A DNA stretch of 64,000 bases from a virus (IMGVR_UViG_3300017917_002108:32001-96000); one strand, 5' to 3'. Positions 36,596 to 49,974 are shown, counted from the first letter of the stretch. The notes: generated by a model from the sequence alone, not told the origin. Program-made: numbers and translations.

Positions 36596-37438
36596 ATGGA
36601 TTATTATAATATTTTAGGTGTAGCTAAAAACGCTAGTCAGGACGAAATTAAATCAGCCTATCGGAAGATGGCCATGAAGTTTCATCCCGATAGAGGTGGG
36701 GACGAAAAGAAATTCAAAGAAATAGAAGAAGCTTACCGAACACTTAGCGATCCTCAGAAAAAACAGATATTTGATTTAGGCGGTGATCCGAATAATCAAA
36801 ACGGCGGATTTTACAATCAAGGACCGTTCGAGTTCCATTTTGGAACTAACAACATGAATGATGTATTTGGAAACTTTGGTTTTGGAGGACCGTTTGGATT
36901 TGGTGCTAGGCAAAGAAATAAATCGATAAACATCGTAGTAGAACTGACCTTGGAAGAAGTTCTTGTCGGCAAGGATATAGATGCCGAGATATCTATCCCT
37001 GGCGGGAAAAAGAAAATCATTAACATCAGTGTTCCGCCCGGAATAGAGGAAGGACAACAGATTAGATATCAAGGTATGGGAGATAATAGTATCCCTCATA
37101 TTCAACCCGGAGACCTGTTAGTCAATATCCGTATACTACCGCATGCAGAATTTAGGCGAGAAGGATCTAATATTATTTTAGATAAAACAGTGTCTGTATG
37201 GGACGCTATACTCGGCTGTTCTTTGACTATCAAAACTTTAGATCATAAGACTTTACAAATTTCTGTGCCTGCTGGTACACAACCAGAGACTGTACTCAGC
37301 TGTAAAAATGAAGGATTACCATTAATGAGAAATCAAAGACGAGGTAATCTTCTAATTAAAATTAAAGTGGAAATTCCTAAAAATATCGGTCATCAGATGA
37401 AAGCCGCTGTAGAAAAACTAAAGAATAATGATGTATGA
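36596..37438 (+). CDS. dnaJ: DnaJ-class co-chaperone lacking Zn finger (CbpA-like)
   Basis: DYYNILGV, HPD motif, G/F-rich region, GDLLV and GNLLI C-domains. Confidence 0.93.
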   Translation: MDYYNILGVAKNASQDEIKSAYRKMAMKFHPDRGGDEKKFKEIEEAYRTLSDPQKKQIFDLGGDPNNQNGGFYNQGPFEFHFGTNNMNDVFGNFGFGGPFGFGARQRNKSINIVVELTLEEVLVGKDIDAEISIPGGKKKIINISVPPGIEEGQQIRYQGMGDNSIPHIQPGDLLVNIRILPHAEFRREGSNIILDKTVSVWDAILGCSLTIKTLDHKTLQISVPAGTQPETVLSCKNEGLPLMRNQRRGNLLIKIKVEIPKNIGHQMKAAVEKLKNNDV

Positions 37439-37522
37439 TCACTTAGATGGTATATGTTTAGTTGACAAAGTGAGTCAGCTGGAATTAAACTTAGATATAA
37501 AGAAACTTAGGAAAAAGAAATA

Positions 37523-39862
37523 ATGATAGAACCAAGCTCAAATCTGCAACAAATATTTGATAATGCAGTTGAACATGCGAAAAAATTAAATCACGAATAT
37601 ATCACAATTGAGCATTTAGTATATGCTATAGTCTGTGACGGTCCCTCATTTCAAATCATAGAAAATTATGGAGCAGATGCAAATTTTATCAAGACTAATT
37701 TAGAACATTATATCAGAAATAATTTGAACGACATCAAAGCTTCTGATCCTAATCAGAAGCCAAAAAAGACCAGTTCAGTTGAAAGAGTTCTAAATCGTTG
37801 TTTTACGCAGGTATTGTTCAGTGGTAGGCAACGTATGGAAGTTGCTGATATCATTATCAGTATTCTAAGTGAAAAAAATAGCTTTGGTTTTTACTTCTTA
37901 AGTAAAGGTGGTCTGACCAAAGAAAAATTTATCCAGTATTTCCAAGAAAATCTAGAGATAGAAGAAGAAGAACCGTCTACTCAAATTGCGACTAATTCAC
38001 AGATGGAAAGAATCATTAATCAATTTTGTACCAATCTCAGCCTACTAGCCAAACAACGTAAGATTGATCCAGTCATTGGCAGAGATGAAGAATTAGAAAA
38101 AATTCAATTGATTCTGGCACGTAGAAATAAATGTAATGTTCTAATGGTAGGAGATCCTGGCGTGGGCAAAACTGCCATTGCAGAAGGCCTGGCTCGTAAG
38201 ATCTTTGAAAAGAAAGTTCCTAAGTTCATCCAAGATCATCAAGTCTATACATTAGATATCAGCTCTTTACTGGCAGGTTCTAAGTATCGAGGTGACTTCG
38301 AAGAGAGGATCAAAGCAGTACTAGCATCGTTAGAGAAAAAAGGCAAGATCATATTGTTCATCGATGAAGCACATATGATGCAAGGAGCAGGTGCAGCTAA
38401 TCAAAGCTCAAACGATCTAGCTAACATTCTTAAGCCTATACTGACCAAAGGTATCATAAAACTTATCGCATCAACCACATGGGAAGAATATCGCAAACAT
38501 TTCGAAAGCGATAGAGCATTAATGCGTAGATTCCAACGTGTAACGGTCGATGAACCTAGCCAAGAGATGACTGTTAAAATTATCAAAGGTATTAGAAAAT
38601 ATTATGAAAAACATCATAATGTTAAAATTACCGATGCAGGAATTGATCAAGCAGTAAAGTTATCAATCAAATATATGGCTGATAAAAAATTGCCGGATAA
38701 AGCCATTGATATCATAGACTGTGCCGCGGCTAGATATAAACTCAAAGATGATCCCACCGAAGAAGGCATCGAACAGTTAGTTGACGTTGAACAGGTCACA
38801 TATGAACTCAGCAAAATGATCAACATGCCATTGGAAACTGTGGCTCAGAAAGAAAGTAAAAATCTAACCGGTCTTGAAAAAGGTATGAAGGCTGCTGTAT
38901 ACGGACAAAATGAAGCTGTTGATACCTTGCTTGATAAGATTTTTGTCGCCCAAGCAGGCATGAAGCAACCAAATAAACCCATTGGGTCTTTCCTATTCCT
39001 TGGACCCACAGGCACAGGCAAGACCGAAACTGCTAAGACATTGGCAGATAAGATGGGCATGCAATTGGTAAGATTTGACATGGGAGAATATCAAGAGAAG
39101 CATAGCGTGGCAAGGCTAATCGGTGCGCCTCCCGGATATGTGGGCTATGAAGATAACGCAGGTCAGCTGATTACCAAACTTCAAGAACATCCTAACAGTA
39201 TTATTTTACTAGATGAGATTGAAAAAGCTCATCCAGATGTTAGTAATATTTTATTAGCATTTATGGATAATGGATTTATCACAGGCAGCAATGGAAAACA
39301 GGCAGATGGCAGGAACTGTATCCTCATTATGACATCTAATCTAGGAGCCAGAGACAACGAAAATAATGCCATTGGATTTGGTGATCTAGATAAAGACGGT
39401 GAAGATGACAAAGCGGTCAAGAAATATTTTGCTCCTGAATTCCGCAATCGTTTAGATGCAGTAATTAAATTTGATAAGCTAGGACTAGATGTAGTTATAC
39501 AAATTGTCAATAAATTTATATCAGAATTAAATTCTCAGCTGAAAGATAAAAATATTGAAATCGTATTGACCCATAAGGCTCAAAATTGGTTAGCAGAAAA
39601 AGGCTACGATAAAAAAATGGGTGCAAGACCGTTATCTCGATTGATAGATAATAAGATCAAATCTCCGTTGAGCCGCAGAGTATTGTTTGGAGATCTATCT
39701 AACGGTGGTAAGGTAACTGTTGATATTGAAAATGACGAACCGATATTTGCCGTCGAAGACTATATCAAAACATTGACCAGAGCTGCCAAAAGAAAACTAG
39801 GCATAGTTGATGAAATCCTAGAAGCTAAGACCGATGATATCAAAGAAGAAAATAACCAATAG
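37523..39862 (+). CDS. clpA: ClpA ATP-dependent chaperone / protease subunit
   Basis: Clp N-domain, GDPGVGKT, FIDEAH, GPTGTGKT, LIGAPPGYVG, IGF ClpP-docking loop, no ClpB M-domain. Confidence 0.92.
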   Translation: MIEPSSNLQQIFDNAVEHAKKLNHEYITIEHLVYAIVCDGPSFQIIENYGADANFIKTNLEHYIRNNLNDIKASDPNQKPKKTSSVERVLNRCFTQVLFSGRQRMEVADIIISILSEKNSFGFYFLSKGGLTKEKFIQYFQENLEIEEEEPSTQIATNSQMERIINQFCTNLSLLAKQRKIDPVIGRDEELEKIQLILARRNKCNVLMVGDPGVGKTAIAEGLARKIFEKKVPKFIQDHQVYTLDISSLLAGSKYRGDFEERIKAVLASLEKKGKIILFIDEAHMMQGAGAANQSSNDLANILKPILTKGIIKLIASTTWEEYRKHFESDRALMRRFQRVTVDEPSQEMTVKIIKGIRKYYEKHHNVKITDAGIDQAVKLSIKYMADKKLPDKAIDIIDCAAARYKLKDDPTEEGIEQLVDVEQVTYELSKMINMPLETVAQKESKNLTGLEKGMKAAVYGQNEAVDTLLDKIFVAQAGMKQPNKPIGSFLFLGPTGTGKTETAKTLADKMGMQLVRFDMGEYQEKHSVARLIGAPPGYVGYEDNAGQLITKLQEHPNSIILLDEIEKAHPDVSNILLAFMDNGFITGSNGKQADGRNCILIMTSNLGARDNENNAIGFGDLDKDGEDDKAVKKYFAPEFRNRLDAVIKFDKLGLDVVIQIVNKFISELNSQLKDKNIEIVLTHKAQNWLAEKGYDKKMGARPLSRLIDNKIKSPLSRRVLFGDLSNGGKVTVDIENDEPIFAVEDYIKTLTRAAKRKLGIVDEILEAKTDDIKEENNQ

Positions 39863-40882: not shown

Positions 40883-40916
40883 GATAAATATAGTATCATC
40901 TTACGGAAGATACTAT
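40883..40916 (+). promoter_or_regulatory. Late promoter followed by hairpin overlapping the start codon
   Basis: GATAAATA 40883-40890; ATAGTATC (40890-40897) pairs with GATACTAT (40909-40916). Confidence 0.55.
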
Positions 40917-42354
40917 GAGAGACCTATTATCTAAATTAGACGCTATTGTTAGCGAAACAGAATTAAAAGACAAAGAAGATCTTGCTGCTAAACGCAAGGC
41001 CTTACAGGATTTAGAAAACGATCCTGTAGCTACGGAAGATCCGCAAATCAAACAGGCCATTGATCAACGAAAAAATGACCTAGAAAAAGAAGCCAAAATC
41101 AAGGGATTCTCTGAAAGTATTCAATTAGGAGATGAGTTTGGTATAAGTTTTAATGAAGATTTTGAGATAGGTTCATCCGTAGTAGGCTTTGTCAAAGATG
41201 GAATCGTTATAGAACTAGACCAATTCGCATTGGATCTATTAGAAGGACAGGGATTCGATTTCATTGATGGATATCTTAAAGAATCAGAAAAACAAAAAGG
41301 CGTAGACGGTAAAGCCTGCTGGAAAGGCTATAGACGCATGGGCACCAAAAAGAAAGGTGGCAAGACTGTAGACAACTGCGTCAAGGTCAGTGAAGGCTTT
41401 GGTTCTTTAGAAGATGAAGTTATGAAACTTCTAAAAAAGTTCGATGAAGATATGAATGAGATAGGCGGATATGGTGATCCTGATATCAAAGAAATCGTAC
41501 AACATTTAAAAAACGGTGATGCTGAATCAGCAGCTGAAGTAGTATGGTATGCCTACAGCGATCAAGATGGCGGTGAAATTAGAAACATGGAACCGTATGT
41601 CGATGATCTCCAAGCAGAATTTGAAGAACTTGCAGGCGGCGGAGATGAGGATAACGAACCTAGCGGATCATATGATAGTAGCGACGATGCTGATGCTCTG
41701 GCATCAGCAGGACACGGTTCAGACGAAGACTACGGCGATTATGGTTTTGAAGAAGATCATTCAGAAGACCCCAATTCTCCCGAAAACCATTCAGAATATG
41801 ACAACGAAGGCGATATGGCCAAAGACGATCTACGCACCATCAATGATGCTGCACAAGAATTGTATGGCATGCTAGACGTAGATGATAATTTACCGGAGTG
41901 GGTTCAAAGCAAAATCAACAAGGCAGCTGATTATATAGATACTGCCAGAGATTATATGAAATCAAACCATTATGCAGAGGGTAAATATCCTTTTGCAGGA
42001 AAGAAGGTTGGACAAAAAGAAGGGCCAGCAGGACAACTAAAAGGCCGAGACCCGGCAGGATATCCCAAAGGAAAACTTGTAGGTGGCAGTGAAAGTATTG
42101 AGCATGACCTCGACGAAGCAGACTATCAAGGAAGAAAAGTTCAATTAGGCAAGAAGATGTCCGGTGACGTCAAGAAATATAAAGTATATGTACGTAAACC
42201 AAACGGTAATATCGTTAAAGTAAACTTTGGCGATAAGAAAATGCGTATTAAGAAATCTAATCCTGCACGTAGACGCAGTTTCCGTGCAAGACATAACTGT
42301 GCTAATCCGGGACCAAGATGGAAGGCACGTTATTGGAGCTGCAGGAACTGGTAA
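40915..42354 (+). CDS. Modular acidic/basic putative internal head polyprotein
   Basis: MRDLLSKLDAIVSE N-terminus; discrete modules separated by xxE sites. Confidence 0.6.
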   Translation: MRDLLSKLDAIVSETELKDKEDLAAKRKALQDLENDPVATEDPQIKQAIDQRKNDLEKEAKIKGFSESIQLGDEFGISFNEDFEIGSSVVGFVKDGIVIELDQFALDLLEGQGFDFIDGYLKESEKQKGVDGKACWKGYRRMGTKKKGGKTVDNCVKVSEGFGSLEDEVMKLLKKFDEDMNEIGGYGDPDIKEIVQHLKNGDAESAAEVVWYAYSDQDGGEIRNMEPYVDDLQAEFEELAGGGDEDNEPSGSYDSSDDADALASAGHGSDEDYGDYGFEEDHSEDPNSPENHSEYDNEGDMAKDDLRTINDAAQELYGMLDVDDNLPEWVQSKINKAADYIDTARDYMKSNHYAEGKYPFAGKKVGQKEGPAGQLKGRDPAGYPKGKLVGGSESIEHDLDEADYQGRKVQLGKKMSGDVKKYKVYVRKPNGNIVKVNFGDKKMRIKKSNPARRRSFRARHNCANPGPRWKARYWSCRNW

Positions 42355-42355
42355 T

Positions 42356-42694
42356 ATGCTACTAAAAGAAATGTTTAGTCCTATAGGGGCTCCTAAATCT
42401 GAGGAAGACGATATCGACTGGTTAGGCGATTTAAAATTTTTCATCGACAACGACAACGAAATGTTGAATAGATATTTTTTTCCTGCTGTCGAAAGACATA
42501 AAAAACATATAGGAAATCCCCATGCCTATAAAATCTACATCAGACCTTTAGAAAGTTGCCTAGAACAATATTGCGAAAAATACGAAGTTGAAGAACCGGA
42601 AACTAAATTTCCCAAAGAAAAAATCATCGAACTAGCAAAAAAAATTGCAGGTCAACAAGATTCTTTCCTAAACAAAGGCGATTATAAAAAATGA
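42356..42694 (+). CDS. Putative internal head protein
   Basis: Start re-assigned to ATG 42356 (MLLKEMF...). Confidence 0.6.
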   Translation: MLLKEMFSPIGAPKSEEDDIDWLGDLKFFIDNDNEMLNRYFFPAVERHKKHIGNPHAYKIYIRPLESCLEQYCEKYEVEEPETKFPKEKIIELAKKIAGQQDSFLNKGDYKK

Positions 42695-43935
42695 AACTGT
42701 TACAGTTATTCGAGGCTGAGACCGGAGGAAAACACATTACTTTCTGTTTTGGAAGATTGAATCCTCCGACTATAGGTCACGAACAACTGCTCGACACCGC
42801 ATCGAAGGTCGGGGGTGACTATAAGATTTTTGTAAGCCAAAGCCAGGATGCGAAAAAAAATCCGTTAGACTATGCAACAAAAATTAAATTTATCAAGTCT
42901 ATGTTTCCTCAACATGCAGCGCATGTGGTCGAAGACACTAGTTTAAATACCATAGTAAAAATTGCATCGTATCTATATGATCTAGGTTATAGAGATGCTA
43001 CCTATGTAGCAGGTAGTGATCGATTAGAAGATATGAAAAAACTTCTAACCCAGTACAATGGTGTAGAAGGTAAGGCACACGGTTATTATAAATTTGAAGT
43101 TCTTGATTTTGTTTCAAGCGGTGAAAGAGAAGATGGTGCTGAAGGTGTTGCTGGTGTCAGTGCATCTGGTGCTAGAGCGGCAGCGGCCAATAATGATCTA
43201 GCAGCATTTCAAGAGGCCACAGGTGCTGGAGATTTGGCTAAACCTTTATTTGATGCGGTACGAAAAGGTATGAAGATAGGAGAAAATATTTCAGAAGCTC
43301 CTATAGAAATGGATCCTGCTGACCCAATGGATCCTATGATCCATAGTCATGATAAGGCCAATCCTGCAAAACTAAAGTATAGGATGTTAAGAGCGGCAGG
43401 ACAGATAAAAGATCTTGCCAGCAGAGTCGACAACGCAAGCCCTAGCGAATGGCAATTAATGACTCGTCAATTTGACGAACTAAAAATGAATGTTGAACAA
43501 ATCCGACATGCTCTAGAAGAATTAGCCAAAGTACGTAAGAAAGGCGGTGTTCGCAGTCGCGGTATAGACAAATTTATCGATAGCGTAGAAGAAGGTTGGA
43601 AAAGTAAAGTGGCCGGTGCTGCATTAGCAGCGGCTAATCTTATTGCTCCTTCTGCTCAAGCAGAGGAACCAGAGAAACCAATTACTATTGCCTATGTTAA
43701 AATTGACGGCGAAGTAAGGAAATATAATTTAGGTGATAGATTCGCCAATGCTAAAGAAGCAGAAGAATTTATCAGCGGAGTATTATCTAAACAAGGCTTA
43801 CAAGGATATCAATTAGATATAAGACACGGATATCCTAAAAAGAAAGAAGTCAAAGAAGGATACGGACGTTATTGGTGCTCAACAGATAAGAAATGGAAAA
43901 CTCGTAAGGGTCCTAAACAGAGTAGAAAATCATGA
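42691..43935 (+). CDS. HIGH-superfamily nucleotidyltransferase with appended modules
   Basis: FGRLNPPTIGH, KNPL, VAGSDR, SAS..R; MKLLQLFE N-terminus. Confidence 0.8.
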   Translation: MKLLQLFEAETGGKHITFCFGRLNPPTIGHEQLLDTASKVGGDYKIFVSQSQDAKKNPLDYATKIKFIKSMFPQHAAHVVEDTSLNTIVKIASYLYDLGYRDATYVAGSDRLEDMKKLLTQYNGVEGKAHGYYKFEVLDFVSSGEREDGAEGVAGVSASGARAAAANNDLAAFQEATGAGDLAKPLFDAVRKGMKIGENISEAPIEMDPADPMDPMIHSHDKANPAKLKYRMLRAAGQIKDLASRVDNASPSEWQLMTRQFDELKMNVEQIRHALEELAKVRKKGGVRSRGIDKFIDSVEEGWKSKVAGAALAAANLIAPSAQAEEPEKPITIAYVKIDGEVRKYNLGDRFANAKEAEEFISGVLSKQGLQGYQLDIRHGYPKKKEVKEGYGRYWCSTDKKWKTRKGPKQSRKS

Positions 43936-44729
43936 AAGCAAAAGAATTTATACCAGCAAGCAAGCCGCGTAATTTTGTAGCCAAGAATCAAAAAACTGCA
44001 GGTGCTGGCGCACACCGTGATAAAAAGAAAGAACAAAAGCAAGGCTACGAAAAACATAAAAAGCAAGGTGTGGCGGAAGGCTCAGAAGAGGATAGAGTTT
44101 TTTATGCTGTACAAGACCCTGACAAATCCTATCACATTTATTCAATAACAGGTAACATTACTGATTTAGATGAATTTCAAGGTAAGTTTGGTCGCAAGTT
44201 ATGGATAGAAGGTCCATTGTTTAATGTAGACAAGGCTCACCAAGCAGTTCATATGCATAAACAGAAGCAAGGTGTGGCGGAAGGCTCGGAAAATCTCGTA
44301 GCTGTCATCGATGGCGTGCGTAGCGATAGAACCTACAACGATAAAGACCATGCTCATAATTCACTAGGAAAGTTAGTAGCTTACGGCAAAGCCAAAGTAG
44401 CAGAATTATATATCGATGGCGAAAAAGTAGAACACTTTGAAATAGGTAAAAAATATTTAGATTTCGAACCAAAACAGTTAGAATCAAAGATGGCAGAAAG
44501 AATAAGAGATCCCGAAGACTGGGACGAAGGTAATACAGAACCACCGAATAATTTTGCTGTTTATATCAACGGTAAAAAATGGAAGGTATTTCAAGGCAAC
44601 GGATACTACGCTGACGACGAGCGTGAAATGCGTCAGTATTATAAACTACAAGATTGGGCTCGTAAAAAATCAGAAGCTACCGGTAAGAAGTGGGAAGTAT
44701 CACGCACCGGCGAACCGGCCACAGCATAA
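43932..44729 (+). CDS. Putative internal head polyprotein with two KQGVAEGS-delimited modules
   Basis: MKAKEF N-terminus; KQGVAEGSE twice. Confidence 0.65.
   Translation: MKAKEFIPASKPRNFVAKNQKTAGAGAHRDKKKEQKQGYEKHKKQGVAEGSEEDRVFYAVQDPDKSYHIYSITGNITDLDEFQGKFGRKLWIEGPLFNVDKAHQAVHMHKQKQGVAEGSENLVAVIDGVRSDRTYNDKDHAHNSLGKLVAYGKAKVAELYIDGEKVEHFEIGKKYLDFEPKQLESKMAERIRDPEDWDEGNTEPPNNFAVYINGKKWKVFQGNGYYADDEREMRQYYKLQDWARKKSEATGKKWEVSRTGEPATA
44061..44287 (+). repeat. Exact 23-bp direct repeat AAGCAAGGTGTGGCGGAAGGCTC (44061-44083 and 44265-44287)
   Basis: Read directly; 204-bp in-frame spacing. Confidence 0.95.
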
Positions 44730-44959
44730 TGGACGAATTAGCACAAATTAAACGTCTAGCCGGTATCAATGAATTTAAAGGCTATCAGCCTTATAATATC
44801 GAACAAGGTAGTAATATTAGTCTAACCGGAAATGAAAAAGGCGAACTAATGAAAAAACACGATATCAGACCAGGAACTCCGGAATGGTTTAAGTTATGGT
44901 TCAGCCTACCCTATCTAACCGGTGAGAAACCTATTGGGAACGATGAATGGTTACGATAA
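44729..44959 (+). CDS. Putative internal head protein
   Basis: [16 protein letters not shown]-terminus; TAATG overlap. Confidence 0.6.
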
Positions 44960-45270
44960 GTCCTTCTGCCAAGATAAAAATCACAGATCTTCTAGACGAA
45001 GAAAACAATCCAGATCTAAAATTACGAACATTTGTTCAGGGCGGTGGATGTTCAGGATTTCAATACGGTTTTACTTTCGATAATGAGCAAAATGACGACG
45101 ATTTCGAAATTATATTAGGACGTTGGAAAATATTAGTAGATGCTATGAGCATGCAATATATGACTGGTGCAGAAATAGATTATGTCGAAGATCTGCAGGG
45201 CAGTCAATTTGTTATTAGAAATCCCAACGCACAGACTACCTGTGGCTGCGGCAGCAGTTTTTCAGTATGA
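44947..45270 (+). CDS. erpA: A-type Fe-S carrier ErpA
   Basis: [20 protein letters not shown]...[14 protein letters not shown]. Confidence 0.92.
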
Positions 45271-45476
45271 GAATTAGAGAATTTATTTTAGATCTCAATG
45301 AAAATTTTGCTGACGGTCGTGTCAAAGGCAAAAGTCGTCCGGGTAGAGTAAAGCGTTCCGGTGCTAGCTGTAACGGGTCCGTAACTGATTTACGCAAACG
45401 TGCTAAAAATGCATCAGGAGAACGAGCTAAAATGTATCATTGGTGTGCTAATATGAAAAGCGGGCGCAATAAATAA
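45267..45476 (+). CDS. Small basic putative internal head protein
   Basis: [13 protein letters not shown]-terminus followed by a basic module. Confidence 0.6.
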
Positions 45477-45480
45477 TACT

Positions 45481-45669
45481 ATGAAAATACGCGAGTTATT
45501 AGAAACAGCCACAGCAGGAGCAACATCTGCGGGCAATGTTTCAGTTGGAGTTGTTTATCCTAATAAGCCCGGAAAACAGCCCAAAAAGAAAAAAGATGGT
45601 ACTGCGCCTAATGCTTTAGATTTACCAGGGGTAAATCTGCTATCTGGCGGTTCTATTGTCAAAAGATAA
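45481..45669 (+). CDS. Small putative internal head protein
   Basis: MKIRELLE N-terminus; ATAAATA 5 nt upstream. Confidence 0.6.
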   Translation: MKIRELLETATAGATSAGNVSVGVVYPNKPGKQPKKKKDGTAPNALDLPGVNLLSGGSIVKR

Positions 45670-45705
45670 ATACAATATGACTCTTTAAGATCAAGGATTT
45701 TTAAC

Positions 45706-46584
45706 ATGGACTTCAAATCATTAATTACTAAAATCAGCGAAATGGACGATAAAATCAATACCATCGCTGCTCCAGAATTACCAAAAGCGGTGCAACTCAA
45801 CGAAGATGCACAACTTCGTGTATTAGCTGGAACTTCAACTATCTTGGAAGAAGCCAAGAAAATGAAGAAAGATGAGAAAAAAGAAGAAAAGGTCGACGAA
45901 GGTCAAGAAGATCTTAAGAAAGTAGGTGATAAGGTCAAGACCCAACACGGTACAATGACTAAAACAGCCACTGGTGTCAAGCACGAACGTTCCTATGGTA
46001 AAGACAAGGACGACGAAGACGATGAGCCAAAATCCAAAAAGAAAGCAAAAAAAGAATCTCTTGATCCTGAACTATTCAAGTCTAAATTCTTAAAAATGGT
46101 TGAAGCTAAAAAATCAGATGCTGATAAGAAAAAAGCTGACAAAAAGAAAAAGATGGACGAAGCTGCTAAACCAGATTTCTTAGATCTAGACAAAGACGGT
46201 AACAAAAAAGAACCAATGAAGTCTGCTGCTAAAGGCAAAGACGGCGAAAAGAAGGACAGCGGCAAGAAAGGCATGAGTGCTGCACAGGAAAAATACTTCG
46301 GCAAGAAAAATGAAAGCAAAATGATGCCGAAAGGTAAAAAGCGTCCTGTCAAAGAAAGTATCGAACAAAAACTTTCTTTCCGTGACATGATGAAATTAGT
46401 AGTCGAAAGCGGTGGACAACAACAGATCGATCCGCTAGACAAAGAATTGTTTGCATGGGCCGAACGTGTTGCTAAGACCAAATTAGGTGAAAATATGAAA
46501 GCTGAAGTCTATGCAGGTATGGTCTACGAACGCATGGGCGGCAGGTTCGAAATGTACGATGTTCTAAGCGAAGATCAAAACTAA
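45706..46584 (+). CDS. Lys/Glu-rich putative head core/scaffold-like protein
   Basis: GATAAATA at 45665-45672; many LNE/LEE/VDE/KKE/VKE sites; LRVLAG motif. Confidence 0.6.
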   Translation: MDFKSLITKISEMDDKINTIAAPELPKAVQLNEDAQLRVLAGTSTILEEAKKMKKDEKKEEKVDEGQEDLKKVGDKVKTQHGTMTKTATGVKHERSYGKDKDDEDDEPKSKKKAKKESLDPELFKSKFLKMVEAKKSDADKKKADKKKKMDEAAKPDFLDLDKDGNKKEPMKSAAKGKDGEKKDSGKKGMSAAQEKYFGKKNESKMMPKGKKRPVKESIEQKLSFRDMMKLVVESGGQQQIDPLDKELFAWAERVAKTKLGENMKAEVYAGMVYERMGGRFEMYDVLSEDQN

Positions 46585-46602: not shown

Positions 46603-46633
46603 AAAAGCCAGTCATTAGTTGACTGGCTTTTTT
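46603..46633 (+). terminator. Intrinsic (bidirectional-looking) terminator
   Basis: AAAAGCCAGTCA-TTAGT-TGACTGGCTTTTTT. Confidence 0.85.
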
Positions 46634-46647
46634 ATTGACTATATAAT
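46619..46647 (+). promoter_or_regulatory. Sigma70-type promoter overlapping terminator
   Basis: TTGACT-17 nt-TATAAT. Confidence 0.75.
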
Positions 46648-46668
46648 AGTCCTATAAGGAGAGATTAT

Positions 46669-46935
46669 ATGGCAAAAATGTACGGTCCAGAAGAAAAGGC
46701 CAAACTAGAACGTTTGATCAATGAGGGCGGTAATGTTCTAAGAGAGATAGAAGATCTTCAAGAAGGTCTTAAAGAAACTGTCAAGGCTGTAGCAGAAGAA
46801 CTACAGGTTAAACCTAGTATCATTAACAAAGCTATCAAAATAGCACATAAAGATAATTGGAAATCTCATGAAGAAGAATGGGATGAAATTGAAATGATTC
46901 TCGGTGTAACTAAAAAATTGCCAGAGAAAGATTAA
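46669..46935 (+). CDS. Small dsDNA-binding protein (T4 DsbA/GapR-like)
   Basis: Helical pattern E..D..E..KE....VAEEL..KP..INKAIK; replication context. Confidence 0.55.
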   Translation: MAKMYGPEEKAKLERLINEGGNVLREIEDLQEGLKETVKAVAEELQVKPSIINKAIKIAHKDNWKSHEEEWDEIEMILGVTKKLPEKD

Positions 46936-47304: not shown

Positions 47305-49974
47305 ATGAGTTACGTTGACGCATTCTACGATCGCGACGACGACACAATCCGTGTTGTTGAACGTGATGACAAGGGTCAGAGGCATTTCAAAGATTACCCT
47401 GCCAAACATCTATTCTATTATAGAGATCCCAAAGGTAAATTCCAAAGCATTTATGGAGAACCGTTATCTAGGGTTTCATGTAAGAACATCAAAGAACTTC
47501 GCAAAGAACTTGCGATACATTCAAATAAAAAATTATACGAATCCGATATAAATCCTATCTATCGGTGTCTCGAAGATCATTATCTAAATCAAGATGCTCC
47601 TAAACTTAATGTAGCATTTTTTGACATCGAGGTAGACTTTGATCCAGAACGTGGTTATGCATCACCAGACGATGCATTCATGCCTATTACCGCTATCGCT
47701 GTTCATTTGCAATGGATGGATACTCTTGTATGCTTGGCTATTCCGCCTAAAACACTTTCCATGCAAGAAGCTAAAAAAGCCGTAGAAGAATTCCCCAATA
47801 CCATGTTGTTCGATAACGAAGCAGACATGTTAGACACATTCTTAGATCTCATACAAGATGCAGATGTATTAAGCGGTTGGAATTCAGAAGGCTTTGATAT
47901 TCCCTATACTGTTAATCGTGTTACCAAAGTTCTAAGCAAAGAAGACACACGTAGATTCTGTCTTTGGAATTGCTATCCCAAAAAACGTGAATATGAAAAG
48001 TATGGCAAAACTGCTGTTACCTATGATCTCATAGGTCGAGTACATCTAGACAGTCTCGAACTTTATAGAAAATATACCTATGAAGAACGACATACCTATC
48101 GATTAGATGCCATCGGTGAGATGGAAATTGGAGAAAATAAAACTGTCTATGAAGGCACATTAGATCAATTATACAATAATGACTTCAAAAAGTTTATTGA
48201 ATATAATAGACAAGATTGTGCATTGTTAGATAAACTTGATAAGAAACTAAAATTTTTAGATTTGGCCAATACACTGGCTCATGAATGTACTGTTCTACTA
48301 CAAACTACCATGGGGGCTGTGGCTGTTACTGAGCAAGCAATTATCAATGAAGCTCATAAACGAGGGATGATCGTTCCTAATCGTAAGAAGATGGATGAAC
48401 AAGGTGATACACAGGCCGCCGGTGCCTATGTGGCATATCCTAAGAAAGGCATACATGAGTGGATTGGTTCTCTTGATATTAATAGTCTTTATCCTTCTGC
48501 TATTAGAGCTTTGAATATGGGTCCAGAAACCATCGTAGGCCAATTGCGTCAAGACGGTACTAAGGCGCATATCGAATCCGAAATGGCCAAGGGAAAATCA
48601 TTTGCTGCTGCGTGGGAAGGGATGTTTGGTAGCGTAGAATACACATCGGTGATGTCTAAAGAAGTGGGTAGAGAAATTACTATCGATTGGGAAGAAGGTA
48701 ATCATGATACCCTAAGTGCTGCTCAAATTTATAATCTTATATTTGAATCAAATCAGCCGTGGATGATCTCCGCTAACGGTACTATCTTTACCTATGAGAA
48801 AGAAGGAATCATTCCAGGTCTGTTGAAACGTTGGTACGCTGAACGTAAAGACATGCAGAAGAAACTTAAAGAATCTATTGCAGCCGGTAATAAGATCGAA
48901 GAAGAATATTGGGACAAACGTCAGTTGGTCAAGAAAATTAACTTGAACAGTTTATATGGTGCTATTCTTAATCCTGGCTGTCGTTTCTTTGATAACAGAA
49001 TTGGACAATCAACAACATTGACAGGTCGAGCTATTGCTAAACATATGGCTGGTAAAGTCAATGAAATCATCACAGGTACATTTGATCATATAGGCAAGGC
49101 GATTATCTATGGTGACACTGACTCATGTTACTTTTCAGCATACAACACTCTTAAAAAAGACATAGACAAAGGTTCCATACCTTGGAGTAAAGAGAATATT
49201 ATTGAGCTCTATGATACCATAGGCGAAGAAGTAAATTCAACATTCCCTAAATTTATGCAGGATGCGTTTCATTGTCCTAAGACTCGAGGAGAAGTGATCA
49301 AGGCCGGTCGAGAAATTGTCGCATCAAAAGGACTTTTCATTACCAAGAAACGTTATGCTGTTCTTTACTATGACAAAGAAGGCAAGCGTCAAGATGTAGA
49401 CGGAAAGACTGGTAAGATCAAAGCCATGGGACTTGATCTCAAACGTTCGGATACTCCTGTGGTCATTCAAGACTTTTTAAGTGATGTACTGACTCGTGTT
49501 CTTAATGGTGAGAATCGAGATGATATTCTTACCTATATCACGGATTTCCGCACTGAGTTCAAGACCAGACCCGGTTGGGAGAAGGGTTCGCCTAAACGTG
49601 CCAACAACATTACAGAATACGCTGCCAAGGAAAAGAAAGCAGGCAAAGCCAATATGCCAGGGCATGTTCGTGCAAGTCTTAACTGGAATACTTTGAAACG
49701 TATGATGGATGACAAGTACTCAATGAACATAGTCGATGGTATGAAGGTCATTGTCTGTAAGATCAAAGACAATCCCATGGGCTATACTTCAGTGGCATAT
49801 CCTGTAGACGAACTTAGATTACCTCAGTGGTTCAAAGATATGCCGTTCAACGACGCAGAGATGGAAAATGCGATCATTGACGAAAAACTAGAAAACTTAA
49901 TTGGCGTTCTAGAATGGGACATCGGTTCGACAAGATCCGATAATAATTTCAACAAATTATTTGATTTTGAGTGA
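47305..49974 (+). CDS. Family B DNA polymerase (T4 gp43-like)
   Basis: Exo FDIE, GWNSEGFD, YNRQD; Pol DINSLYPS, KINLNSLYG, YGDTDS; start moved to ATG 47305 after GGAG. Confidence 0.97.
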   Translation: MSYVDAFYDRDDDTIRVVERDDKGQRHFKDYPAKHLFYYRDPKGKFQSIYGEPLSRVSCKNIKELRKELAIHSNKKLYESDINPIYRCLEDHYLNQDAPKLNVAFFDIEVDFDPERGYASPDDAFMPITAIAVHLQWMDTLVCLAIPPKTLSMQEAKKAVEEFPNTMLFDNEADMLDTFLDLIQDADVLSGWNSEGFDIPYTVNRVTKVLSKEDTRRFCLWNCYPKKREYEKYGKTAVTYDLIGRVHLDSLELYRKYTYEERHTYRLDAIGEMEIGENKTVYEGTLDQLYNNDFKKFIEYNRQDCALLDKLDKKLKFLDLANTLAHECTVLLQTTMGAVAVTEQAIINEAHKRGMIVPNRKKMDEQGDTQAAGAYVAYPKKGIHEWIGSLDINSLYPSAIRALNMGPETIVGQLRQDGTKAHIESEMAKGKSFAAAWEGMFGSVEYTSVMSKEVGREITIDWEEGNHDTLSAAQIYNLIFESNQPWMISANGTIFTYEKEGIIPGLLKRWYAERKDMQKKLKESIAAGNKIEEEYWDKRQLVKKINLNSLYGAILNPGCRFFDNRIGQSTTLTGRAIAKHMAGKVNEIITGTFDHIGKAIIYGDTDSCYFSAYNTLKKDIDKGSIPWSKENIIELYDTIGEEVNSTFPKFMQDAFHCPKTRGEVIKAGREIVASKGLFITKKRYAVLYYDKEGKRQDVDGKTGKIKAMGLDLKRSDTPVVIQDFLSDVLTRVLNGENRDDILTYITDFRTEFKTRPGWEKGSPKRANNITEYAAKEKKAGKANMPGHVRASLNWNTLKRMMDDKYSMNIVDGMKVIVCKIKDNPMGYTSVAYPVDELRLPQWFKDMPFNDAEMENAIIDEKLENLIGVLEWDIGSTRSDNNFNKLFDFE

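Follow-up and report, generated by a model that had tools for sequence, protein, structure and literature searches.

The window analysed here, a stretch of 64,000 nucleotides (nt) from a virus (IMGVR_UViG_3300017917_002108:32001-96000), contains an open reading frame (ORF) of 265 amino acids (aa) in which the 23-nt sequence AAGCAAGGTGTGGCGGAAGGCTC occurs twice. We showed three things directly: the repeat itself, its conservation as DNA well beyond this gene, and breakpoints between modules that fall on this word. These observations suggest that the two copies are one pair of a portable in-frame joint, used throughout a phage lineage to couple protein modules, and that the resulting chain may be cleaved. 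We regard this explanation as the probable one, although it falls well short of certainty.

An earlier note on this DNA had pointed to identical copies at 44061 and 44265, 204 nt apart, to unrelated modules behind them, to a degenerate third junction (KMAE) before the terminal module and to GC-rich GTG and GCG codons in an AT-rich genome. All of this holds. The two copies match exactly, and 0 of 100 shuffles yielded a match to the 23-nt repeat. Alignment over 27 nt leaves 26 of 27 positions identical, and when an indel of 3 nt is allowed the match reaches CATAAA upstream. Both copies are in frame with the ORF and encode QGVAEG (aa 45-50 and 113-118). The virus record to which the window belongs (146.6 kb, GC content 38.7%, estimated completeness 41%) has no further copy beyond these two. 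GTG makes up 15.5% of the Val codons of this genome and GCG 8.1% of its Ala codons, and both are thus minor codons. As for the modules, pairwise comparison of the three found no sequence similarity between them.

The repeat is far from unique to the window gene, a possibility that the earlier note had left room for. Its exact 17-nt core is found in at least 120 viral contigs. Among the matches listed, 159 of 162 instances of this core encode QGVAEG as part of a long ORF, with a constant coding strand and reading frame and a local GC of 0.42, and 32 of the 120 loci hold more than one copy. A control scan of 596 Gb of bacterial genomes gave 17-mer matches with scattered frames and a GC of 0.65, never in multiple copies. 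Because these bacterial matches behave as chance predicts, a chance origin of the viral spread can be rejected. In 148 independent contexts whose flanks are unrelated, the information content peaks over the word and drops to zero beyond about 21 nt, with a weak signal at the edges, in the preceding codon (A/G-A-G) and in the following base (C in 80%). The 23-mer of the window is the consensus of this family.

The note had also proposed looking for conservation at synonymous sites, and this conservation is strong. A partly degenerate scan pattern, in which three four-fold sites could vary, gave 72 phage-like linker contexts, of which 54 (75%) use GGT-GTG-GCG, against 0.3% expected from background codon use; most of the others are one-step variants. 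The rare codons are also kept in loci chosen by protein similarity, independently of the word: GTG in 7 of 10 and GCG in 8 of 12, for backgrounds of 0.12 and 0.07 respectively, and the common codons GTT and GCT are never used in the linker. The DNA of the junction is kept beyond what the peptide requires, as befits an in-frame recombination joint. Whole genomes of 167-343 kb carry only 2-7 copies of the word each, on one strand and in few clusters. A genome-wide DNA signal, in the manner of Chi or of uptake sequences, is excluded by so few clustered copies, confined to the coding strand and to a single frame.

The comparison of related genes places the word at the breakpoints. The closest orthologs show the same synteny and 85-90% DNA identity through module 2 and the conserved C-terminal module (C-module; all features are located in Table 1). 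Among the orthologs P0001-P0006, module 1 is missing in four and replaced in two, by a CxxC-type module with a linker on either side in one and by a different, longer module in the other; similarity always ends at the linker. Elsewhere, module 1 is found in only two proteins (P0121 and P0122), which are otherwise unrelated to the window protein and carry a linker on both sides of it. A three-gene DNA alignment around module 1 makes this particularly clear, as identity of about 90% starts at the left word and stops just after the right word. Among 151 word instances, 35 context pairs share one flank only and 5 pairs share both. In the one-sided pairs, the 15 nt adjoining the word are 0.84 identical on the shared flank and 0.35 on the other, where identity then falls to the background of 0.27. 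The idea that the repeat is a site of gain, loss and shuffling of modules is hence supported by the breakpoints in orthologs, whose module content changes exactly between repeats instead of being the same in all of them, and by the presence of module 1 in two other genes. Such patterns, read from sequences, strongly support the word as the junction at which modules would be gained, lost and swapped. At a further locus (L064), one left-hand module occurs twice (100% identical over 90 nt) and the word links its two copies to two different right-hand modules, an arrangement that represents an intragenomic duplication accompanied by exchange at the word.

The 265-aa protein has the organisation expected of such a mosaic. 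Its leader matches the profile of Pfam DUF7230 (PF23876), a family without known function, above the curated cut-off (aa 11-47, 28.8-31.4 bits for a cut-off of 27). An AlphaFold model (AF2) built from 74 sequences predicts a disordered leader followed by three separate small alpha/beta modules. The three stretches in which the predicted local distance difference test score (pLDDT) is below 50 (aa 42-50, 93-117 and 182-189) coincide exactly with the three junctions. The modules probably have no fixed mutual arrangement, because the predicted template-modelling score of the model is 0.31. Searches of Pfam and PHROGs gave no family for the three modules or for most neighbouring genes. A fold search with the model found no significant match in the PDB, and in BFVD only a homolog; the best PDB match, the Dmd antitoxin (E 0.76), was treated as noise.

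A public protein search returned 933 relatives of 145-464 aa, nearly all with the leader and the C-module and with a variable middle. The shortest common form of the family is a leader joined to a C-module, about 126-138 aa long. Fusions extend further: the product of 45481-45669, a separate gene here, is fused to the C-terminus of homologs of the 265-aa protein elsewhere, and in some phages an entire DUF7230 protein is fused behind the cytidylyltransferase-like enzyme that here precedes the window gene (P0084, P0115, L229). Among the cultured phages searched there was no match to the whole protein or to the C-module, and only a weak match to the leader. The lineage bearing the word is that of giant (about 300-350 kb) T4-like phages, uncultured and mostly found in lake-type metagenomes.

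Table 1. Features of the modular gene and of its operon in the window.
Feature	Position	Strand	Remarks
GATAAATA box, T4-late-promoter-like	40883..40890	+	24 nt 5' of the operon's first gene; putative promoter
Operon of modular proteins, including the 265-aa ORF	40915..46584	+	co-oriented, tightly packed genes with overlapping stops and starts; several M-K/R-x-x-D/E-hydrophobic leaders
265-aa ORF: leader, module 1, module 2, conserved C-module	43932..44729	+	ORF, homologs, AF2 model
N-terminal leader	43932..44063	+	basic, predicted disordered; aa 11-47 match Pfam DUF7230; common to most homologs
Linker word, copy 1	44061..44083	+	QGVAEG at 44064-44081; equals family-wide consensus RAG-CAA-GGT-GTG-GCG-GAA-GGC
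Module 1, exchangeable cassette	44084..44264	+	forms a 204-nt unit with one linker copy; absent or replaced in orthologs P0001-P0006; pLDDT 65-76 (aa 55-110)
Linker word, copy 2	44265..44287	+	QGVAEG at 44268-44285
Module 2	44288..44486	+	pLDDT 85-88 (aa 121-172); 85-90% nt identity with closest orthologs
Third junction, KMAE	44487..44498	+	hydrophobic-x-Glu, not word-encoded; directly 5' of the C-module; pLDDT <50 at aa 182-189
Conserved C-module	44499..44726	+	constant part of the family, with DPEDWDEGN... core; predicted beta-hairpin, helix, strand; pLDDT 85-96 (aa 205-260)

How might modules move at this word? Because it is in frame, each exchange gives an intact protein. We propose that co-infecting relatives, or paralogous genes, would exchange modules at the identical word through the phages' own general recombination, and that cassettes whose word is intact would stay exchangeable and so spread. 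Two direct copies of the word would make module 1 prone to precise deletion. The window gene itself may be a mosaic of one leader type, an inserted 204-nt cassette and the pair of module 2 and C-module found in its closest orthologs. A UvsX/RecA-family recombinase is encoded in all 3 of the relatives that are at least 97% complete, and general homologous recombination on the short identical word seems to us quite likely to be the mechanism.

The earlier note had instead imagined an integron-like expandable system. More broadly, a dedicated sequence-specific mechanism, be it a recombinase of the integron kind or an endonuclease whose cut at the word would trigger repair, would account for the very sharp edges of the conserved block, for its letter-perfect identity over about 21 nt, which is the usual length of a site-specific enzyme's target, for the excess of the exact word over the frequency expected from codon use and for breakpoints located exactly at it. 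Yet, no tyrosine recombinase was detected in this record (G000) or in the three relatives at least 97% complete (G002, G003, G006) by a search whose control matched 14 of 14 reference genomes, which leads us to reject an integron integrase. The word has no hairpin or inverted repeat on either strand: its minimum free energy is 0 to -1.4 kcal/mol and it folds no better than shuffled sequences, which excludes a hairpin, an attC-like site or an RNA structure. The paucity of sites per genome also fits poorly with cassette arrays of the integron type, and no recombinase or nuclease domain was found in the operon, serine recombinases and nucleases not having been searched systematically. Thus, the integron-like part of the note's proposal did not stand, general homologous recombination is the likelier engine, and a dedicated mechanism of any sort is improbable. 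The fuller version of this idea, in which a phage enzyme (a sequence-specific nuclease, a recombinase or a template-directed repair system) would read the 21-nt word and swap cassettes so as to diversify effectors packaged in the head, released by a protease and injected, is likewise a long shot. One could also suppose that the identity of the word serves the mRNA or its translation, as a rare-codon pause, an internal start or a regulatory site, and that exchange is a by-product. The constant strand and frame, the rare GTG and GCG codons and the position of the word between modules predicted to fold independently would suit such a role, but CAA, GGT and GAA are fixed too, and GGC at 80%, where codon rarity is not at stake. 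Moreover, there is no predicted RNA structure and no start codon at a usable distance, and other junctions of the family do without the word, so that we hold this role to be very improbable. Finally, the repeat might be a single old internal duplication, as the note had envisaged, or an assembly artefact, since this record has its only two copies in one gene. This is barely credible given the 148 contexts on other contigs, the recurrence of the same architectures in independent samples, the unrelated modules behind the two copies, the breakpoint data and the fact that reads longer than 23 nt would resolve so short a repeat.

The peptide encoded by the word raises a separate question, that of the fate of the chain. 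T4 gp21 cleaves after L/I-X-E, and the internal proteins of T4 share only a short targeting leader (PMC9026906, PMC3012670). The word encodes a flexible linker ending in Val-Ala-Glu, in keeping with the hydrophobic-x-Glu pattern at which a gp21-type prohead protease cuts. In 49 homologs selected by protein similarity, hydrophobic-x-Glu ends every module border, whatever the modules. At the border 5' of the C-module, which is not word-encoded, all but two of 79 distinct contexts have Glu (77 of 79), and most also have Met or Val at P3 or P2. Several proteins have ...QGVAE joined directly to the C-module, with the unit ending exactly after the Glu codon. Many word-bearing proteins start with M-K/R-x-x-D/E-hydrophobic-hydrophobic-x-E leaders; the strict form of this pattern occurs in 3 of about 162 genes of this genome, all at 43.9-45.7 kb and inside the operon, and two neighbours of the window gene have leaders of this kind. 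The protease family Peptidase_S77 is encoded by 2 of 3 word-bearing genomes and by 4 of 5 large genomes with homologs of the 265-aa protein, one of them 98% complete; in one relative the gp21 homolog lies at L279:1447-2076, and the capsid protein of a relative retains an L-K-E site before its mature region. A chain expressed late would likely be released as separate small proteins by cleavage, perhaps within the prohead. Judging from these sequence patterns, we consider the arguments for and against cleavage after the linker Glu by a T4-type prohead protease as evenly balanced. Packaging and delivery of the modules are more doubtful, and we propose them only tentatively.

Several observations speak against the portable, cleavable joint and in part for a simpler account, in which the word is a recombination handle and a flexible spacer only, and the proteins are intact multi-domain arrays that act in the cytoplasm, e.g. 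against host defences, and are neither cut nor packaged. No Peptidase_S77, gp23 or other head gene is found in this record, although this is uninformative because the record is so incomplete. The word-bearing genome G002 (the record of locus L044, 342865 bp, 99% complete) has no detectable homolog of gp21 or gp23, and the protease protein of relative G001 used as query gave no match in it. Two readings fit: strongly diverged head genes, or a word that also occurs in phages whose heads are not of the T4 type. The sole leader-like match in a cultured phage (E 0.01) is a stand-alone ORF of 46 aa in the early region (motA-asiA) of a Serratia phage, and the cytidylyltransferase-like enzyme of the same operon starts with a similar leader. 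The leader of the window protein is a basic DUF7230 segment of 45 aa and not a capsid-targeting sequence of 10 aa ending in Glu: its first 7 residues resemble the targeting pattern, there is no Glu near position 10 and the first hydrophobic-x-Glu is at aa 47-49. At the junctions P3 is Val or Met, in contrast to the L/I documented for T4, and the Met found at P3 or P2 before the C-module could be left over from the start codon of a gene that was formerly separate; gene calls starting directly at the C-module are rare (5 of 120). Fold and family searches assign no recognisable function to any module. On the side of recombination, 17-23 nt is short for efficient homologous recombination, and when very close orthologs are compared, the flanks are conserved at least as well as the linker. 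The evidence for shuffling holds equally without cleavage. Nevertheless, a mere handle and spacer does not account for junctions that are hydrophobic-x-Glu without being encoded by the word, for short leaders, similar to the T4 targeting sequence, that occur in this operon only, for late-type promoter boxes at the operon or for the presence of the protease in most large relatives. Hence, we deem this account unlikely, while taking it more seriously than the other alternatives, and retain a portable joint with possible cleavage of the chain.

The modular gene lies in an operon (Table 1) whose upstream box suggests late expression together with the head genes. Of the 21 ATAAATA boxes in this genome, 18 precede a gene start by at most 80 nt, and the GATAAATA form is also found at 22-33 nt 5' of tail-fibre genes. 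The first gene of the operon (40915-42354) encodes 479 aa, a short leader and then a helical module. This module sits between a DUF7230 leader and a C-module in four other loci (L210, L214, L217, L224), and because it thus recurs in DUF7230 proteins elsewhere, different genes of the operon share modules. The cytidylyltransferase-like enzyme (PF01467; phrog_3041, phrog_395; 42691-43935) has the leader-like start M-K-L-L-Q-L-F-E-A-E and small extra C-terminal modules. In this upstream protein of 414 aa, a ...VEE junction is followed by a segment (43594-43662) resembling a Sec signal peptide, with a basic start, an Ala/Leu-rich hydrophobic core and an A-Q-A end; Sec-like segments also occur 3' of linkers in L087, L092, L206, L230 and L245. 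The same protein has a basic tail that is similar to the last part of the DUF7230 leader (58% over 12 aa) and may be what is left of an earlier fusion or exchange, and a direct repeat of 29 nt, 79% identical, is found at 43836-43864 and 44021-44049.

Among the other neighbours, an IscA/ErpA-type Fe-S cluster protein (PF01521, 44947-45270) lies within the operon without a leader, with the same synteny in L284. Just upstream of the operon, at 36596-39862, a full DnaJ (J domain and C-terminal domain) is followed by a ClpB/ClpA-type double AAA+ chaperone. At 46619-46935 a near-consensus sigma-70-type promoter (TTGACT-17-TATAAT) lies 5' of a gene resembling T4 DsbA (PF11126); this promoter marks where the late-type operon ends, ahead of the DNA polymerase gene (47305-49974). 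Outside the window, the same record holds a 4585-aa ORF on the minus strand (G000:C1:119491-133245) with one loosely linker-like peptide, GLAEG. In relative G001, an HNH-type endonuclease-like ORF is found directly 3' of the major capsid gene (L281:2609-3379).

Parts of this picture are known already, namely the Glu-directed processing of T4-type head-internal proteins, exchanges within conserved in-frame motifs and the shuffling of genes by PeSL repeats. The T4 internal proteins IPI-III and Alt have a capsid-targeting sequence, are cut by gp21 after L/I-X-Glu and carry diverse cargo behind a shared leader (PMC9026906, PMC3012670). The likeness to them lies in the T4-like lineage with Peptidase_S77 in relatives, the similar short N-terminal leaders of many word-bearing proteins, the hydrophobic-x-Glu at each boundary, the late-type signals and the highly variable small cargo domains. 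Here, however, many cargo modules are chained in one ORF by a standard linker conserved as DNA, and the window protein, putatively cleaved and packaged, has a long basic leader of its own type. In the T-even tail-fibre adhesins gp38, exchanges occur in or near conserved in-frame glycine-rich motifs between hypervariable segments (PMC3157838, citing Tetart et al. 1996, 1998). There too, short conserved coding motifs part variable segments, and exchange gives in-frame chimeras in T4-type phages. Yet, the gp38 motifs build the core structure of a single domain and belong to a single gene family, whereas the phage word is a single portable joint for hundreds of unrelated, independently folded modules in many genes.

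PeSL repeats are intergenic promoter-terminator units that shuffle whole small genes (PMC2839356). Like the word, they are short repeats that flank small variable genes without known function and act as recombination points for gain, loss and replacement between close relatives; unlike them, the word is coding and in frame, and shuffles protein modules inside genes. In integrons, too, an expandable array of exchangeable cassettes is bounded by a recurrent site, but those cassettes are promoter-less genes and the phage cassettes are in-frame protein modules, with neither an integrase nor an attC-like folded site and with few sites per genome. In Gram-positive surface proteins (protein PAB, the protein G family), interdomain sequences named 'recer' were reportedly proposed by de Chateau and Bjorck in 1996 to allow intron-less module shuffling. 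These are said to be short conserved spacer-encoding sequences at domain borders, as is the word, and to differ from it in belonging to bacterial cell-wall proteins with few modules and no link to a protease site or a phage head. Our literature search gave no paper on DUF7230 or on the linker peptide in such a role. Nor did we find a description of one portable coding word with fixed rare codons that, throughout a lineage of giant phages, links hundreds of unrelated modules into polyprotein-like genes.

The word can be seen as a natural standardised "plug": with 21 nt in frame, modules can be gained, lost and reordered and the reading frame is never broken. For phage evolution, this provides a concrete and countable route by which giant phages turn over small accessory proteins, probably involved in host takeover or anti-defence. 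In metagenomes, hundreds of small domains without assigned function can be harvested by means of the word, which shows precisely where each begins and ends. If cleavage proves true, these would be T4-type phages with true polyproteins, and the joint would provide a ready rule for designing capsids that carry several cargo proteins.

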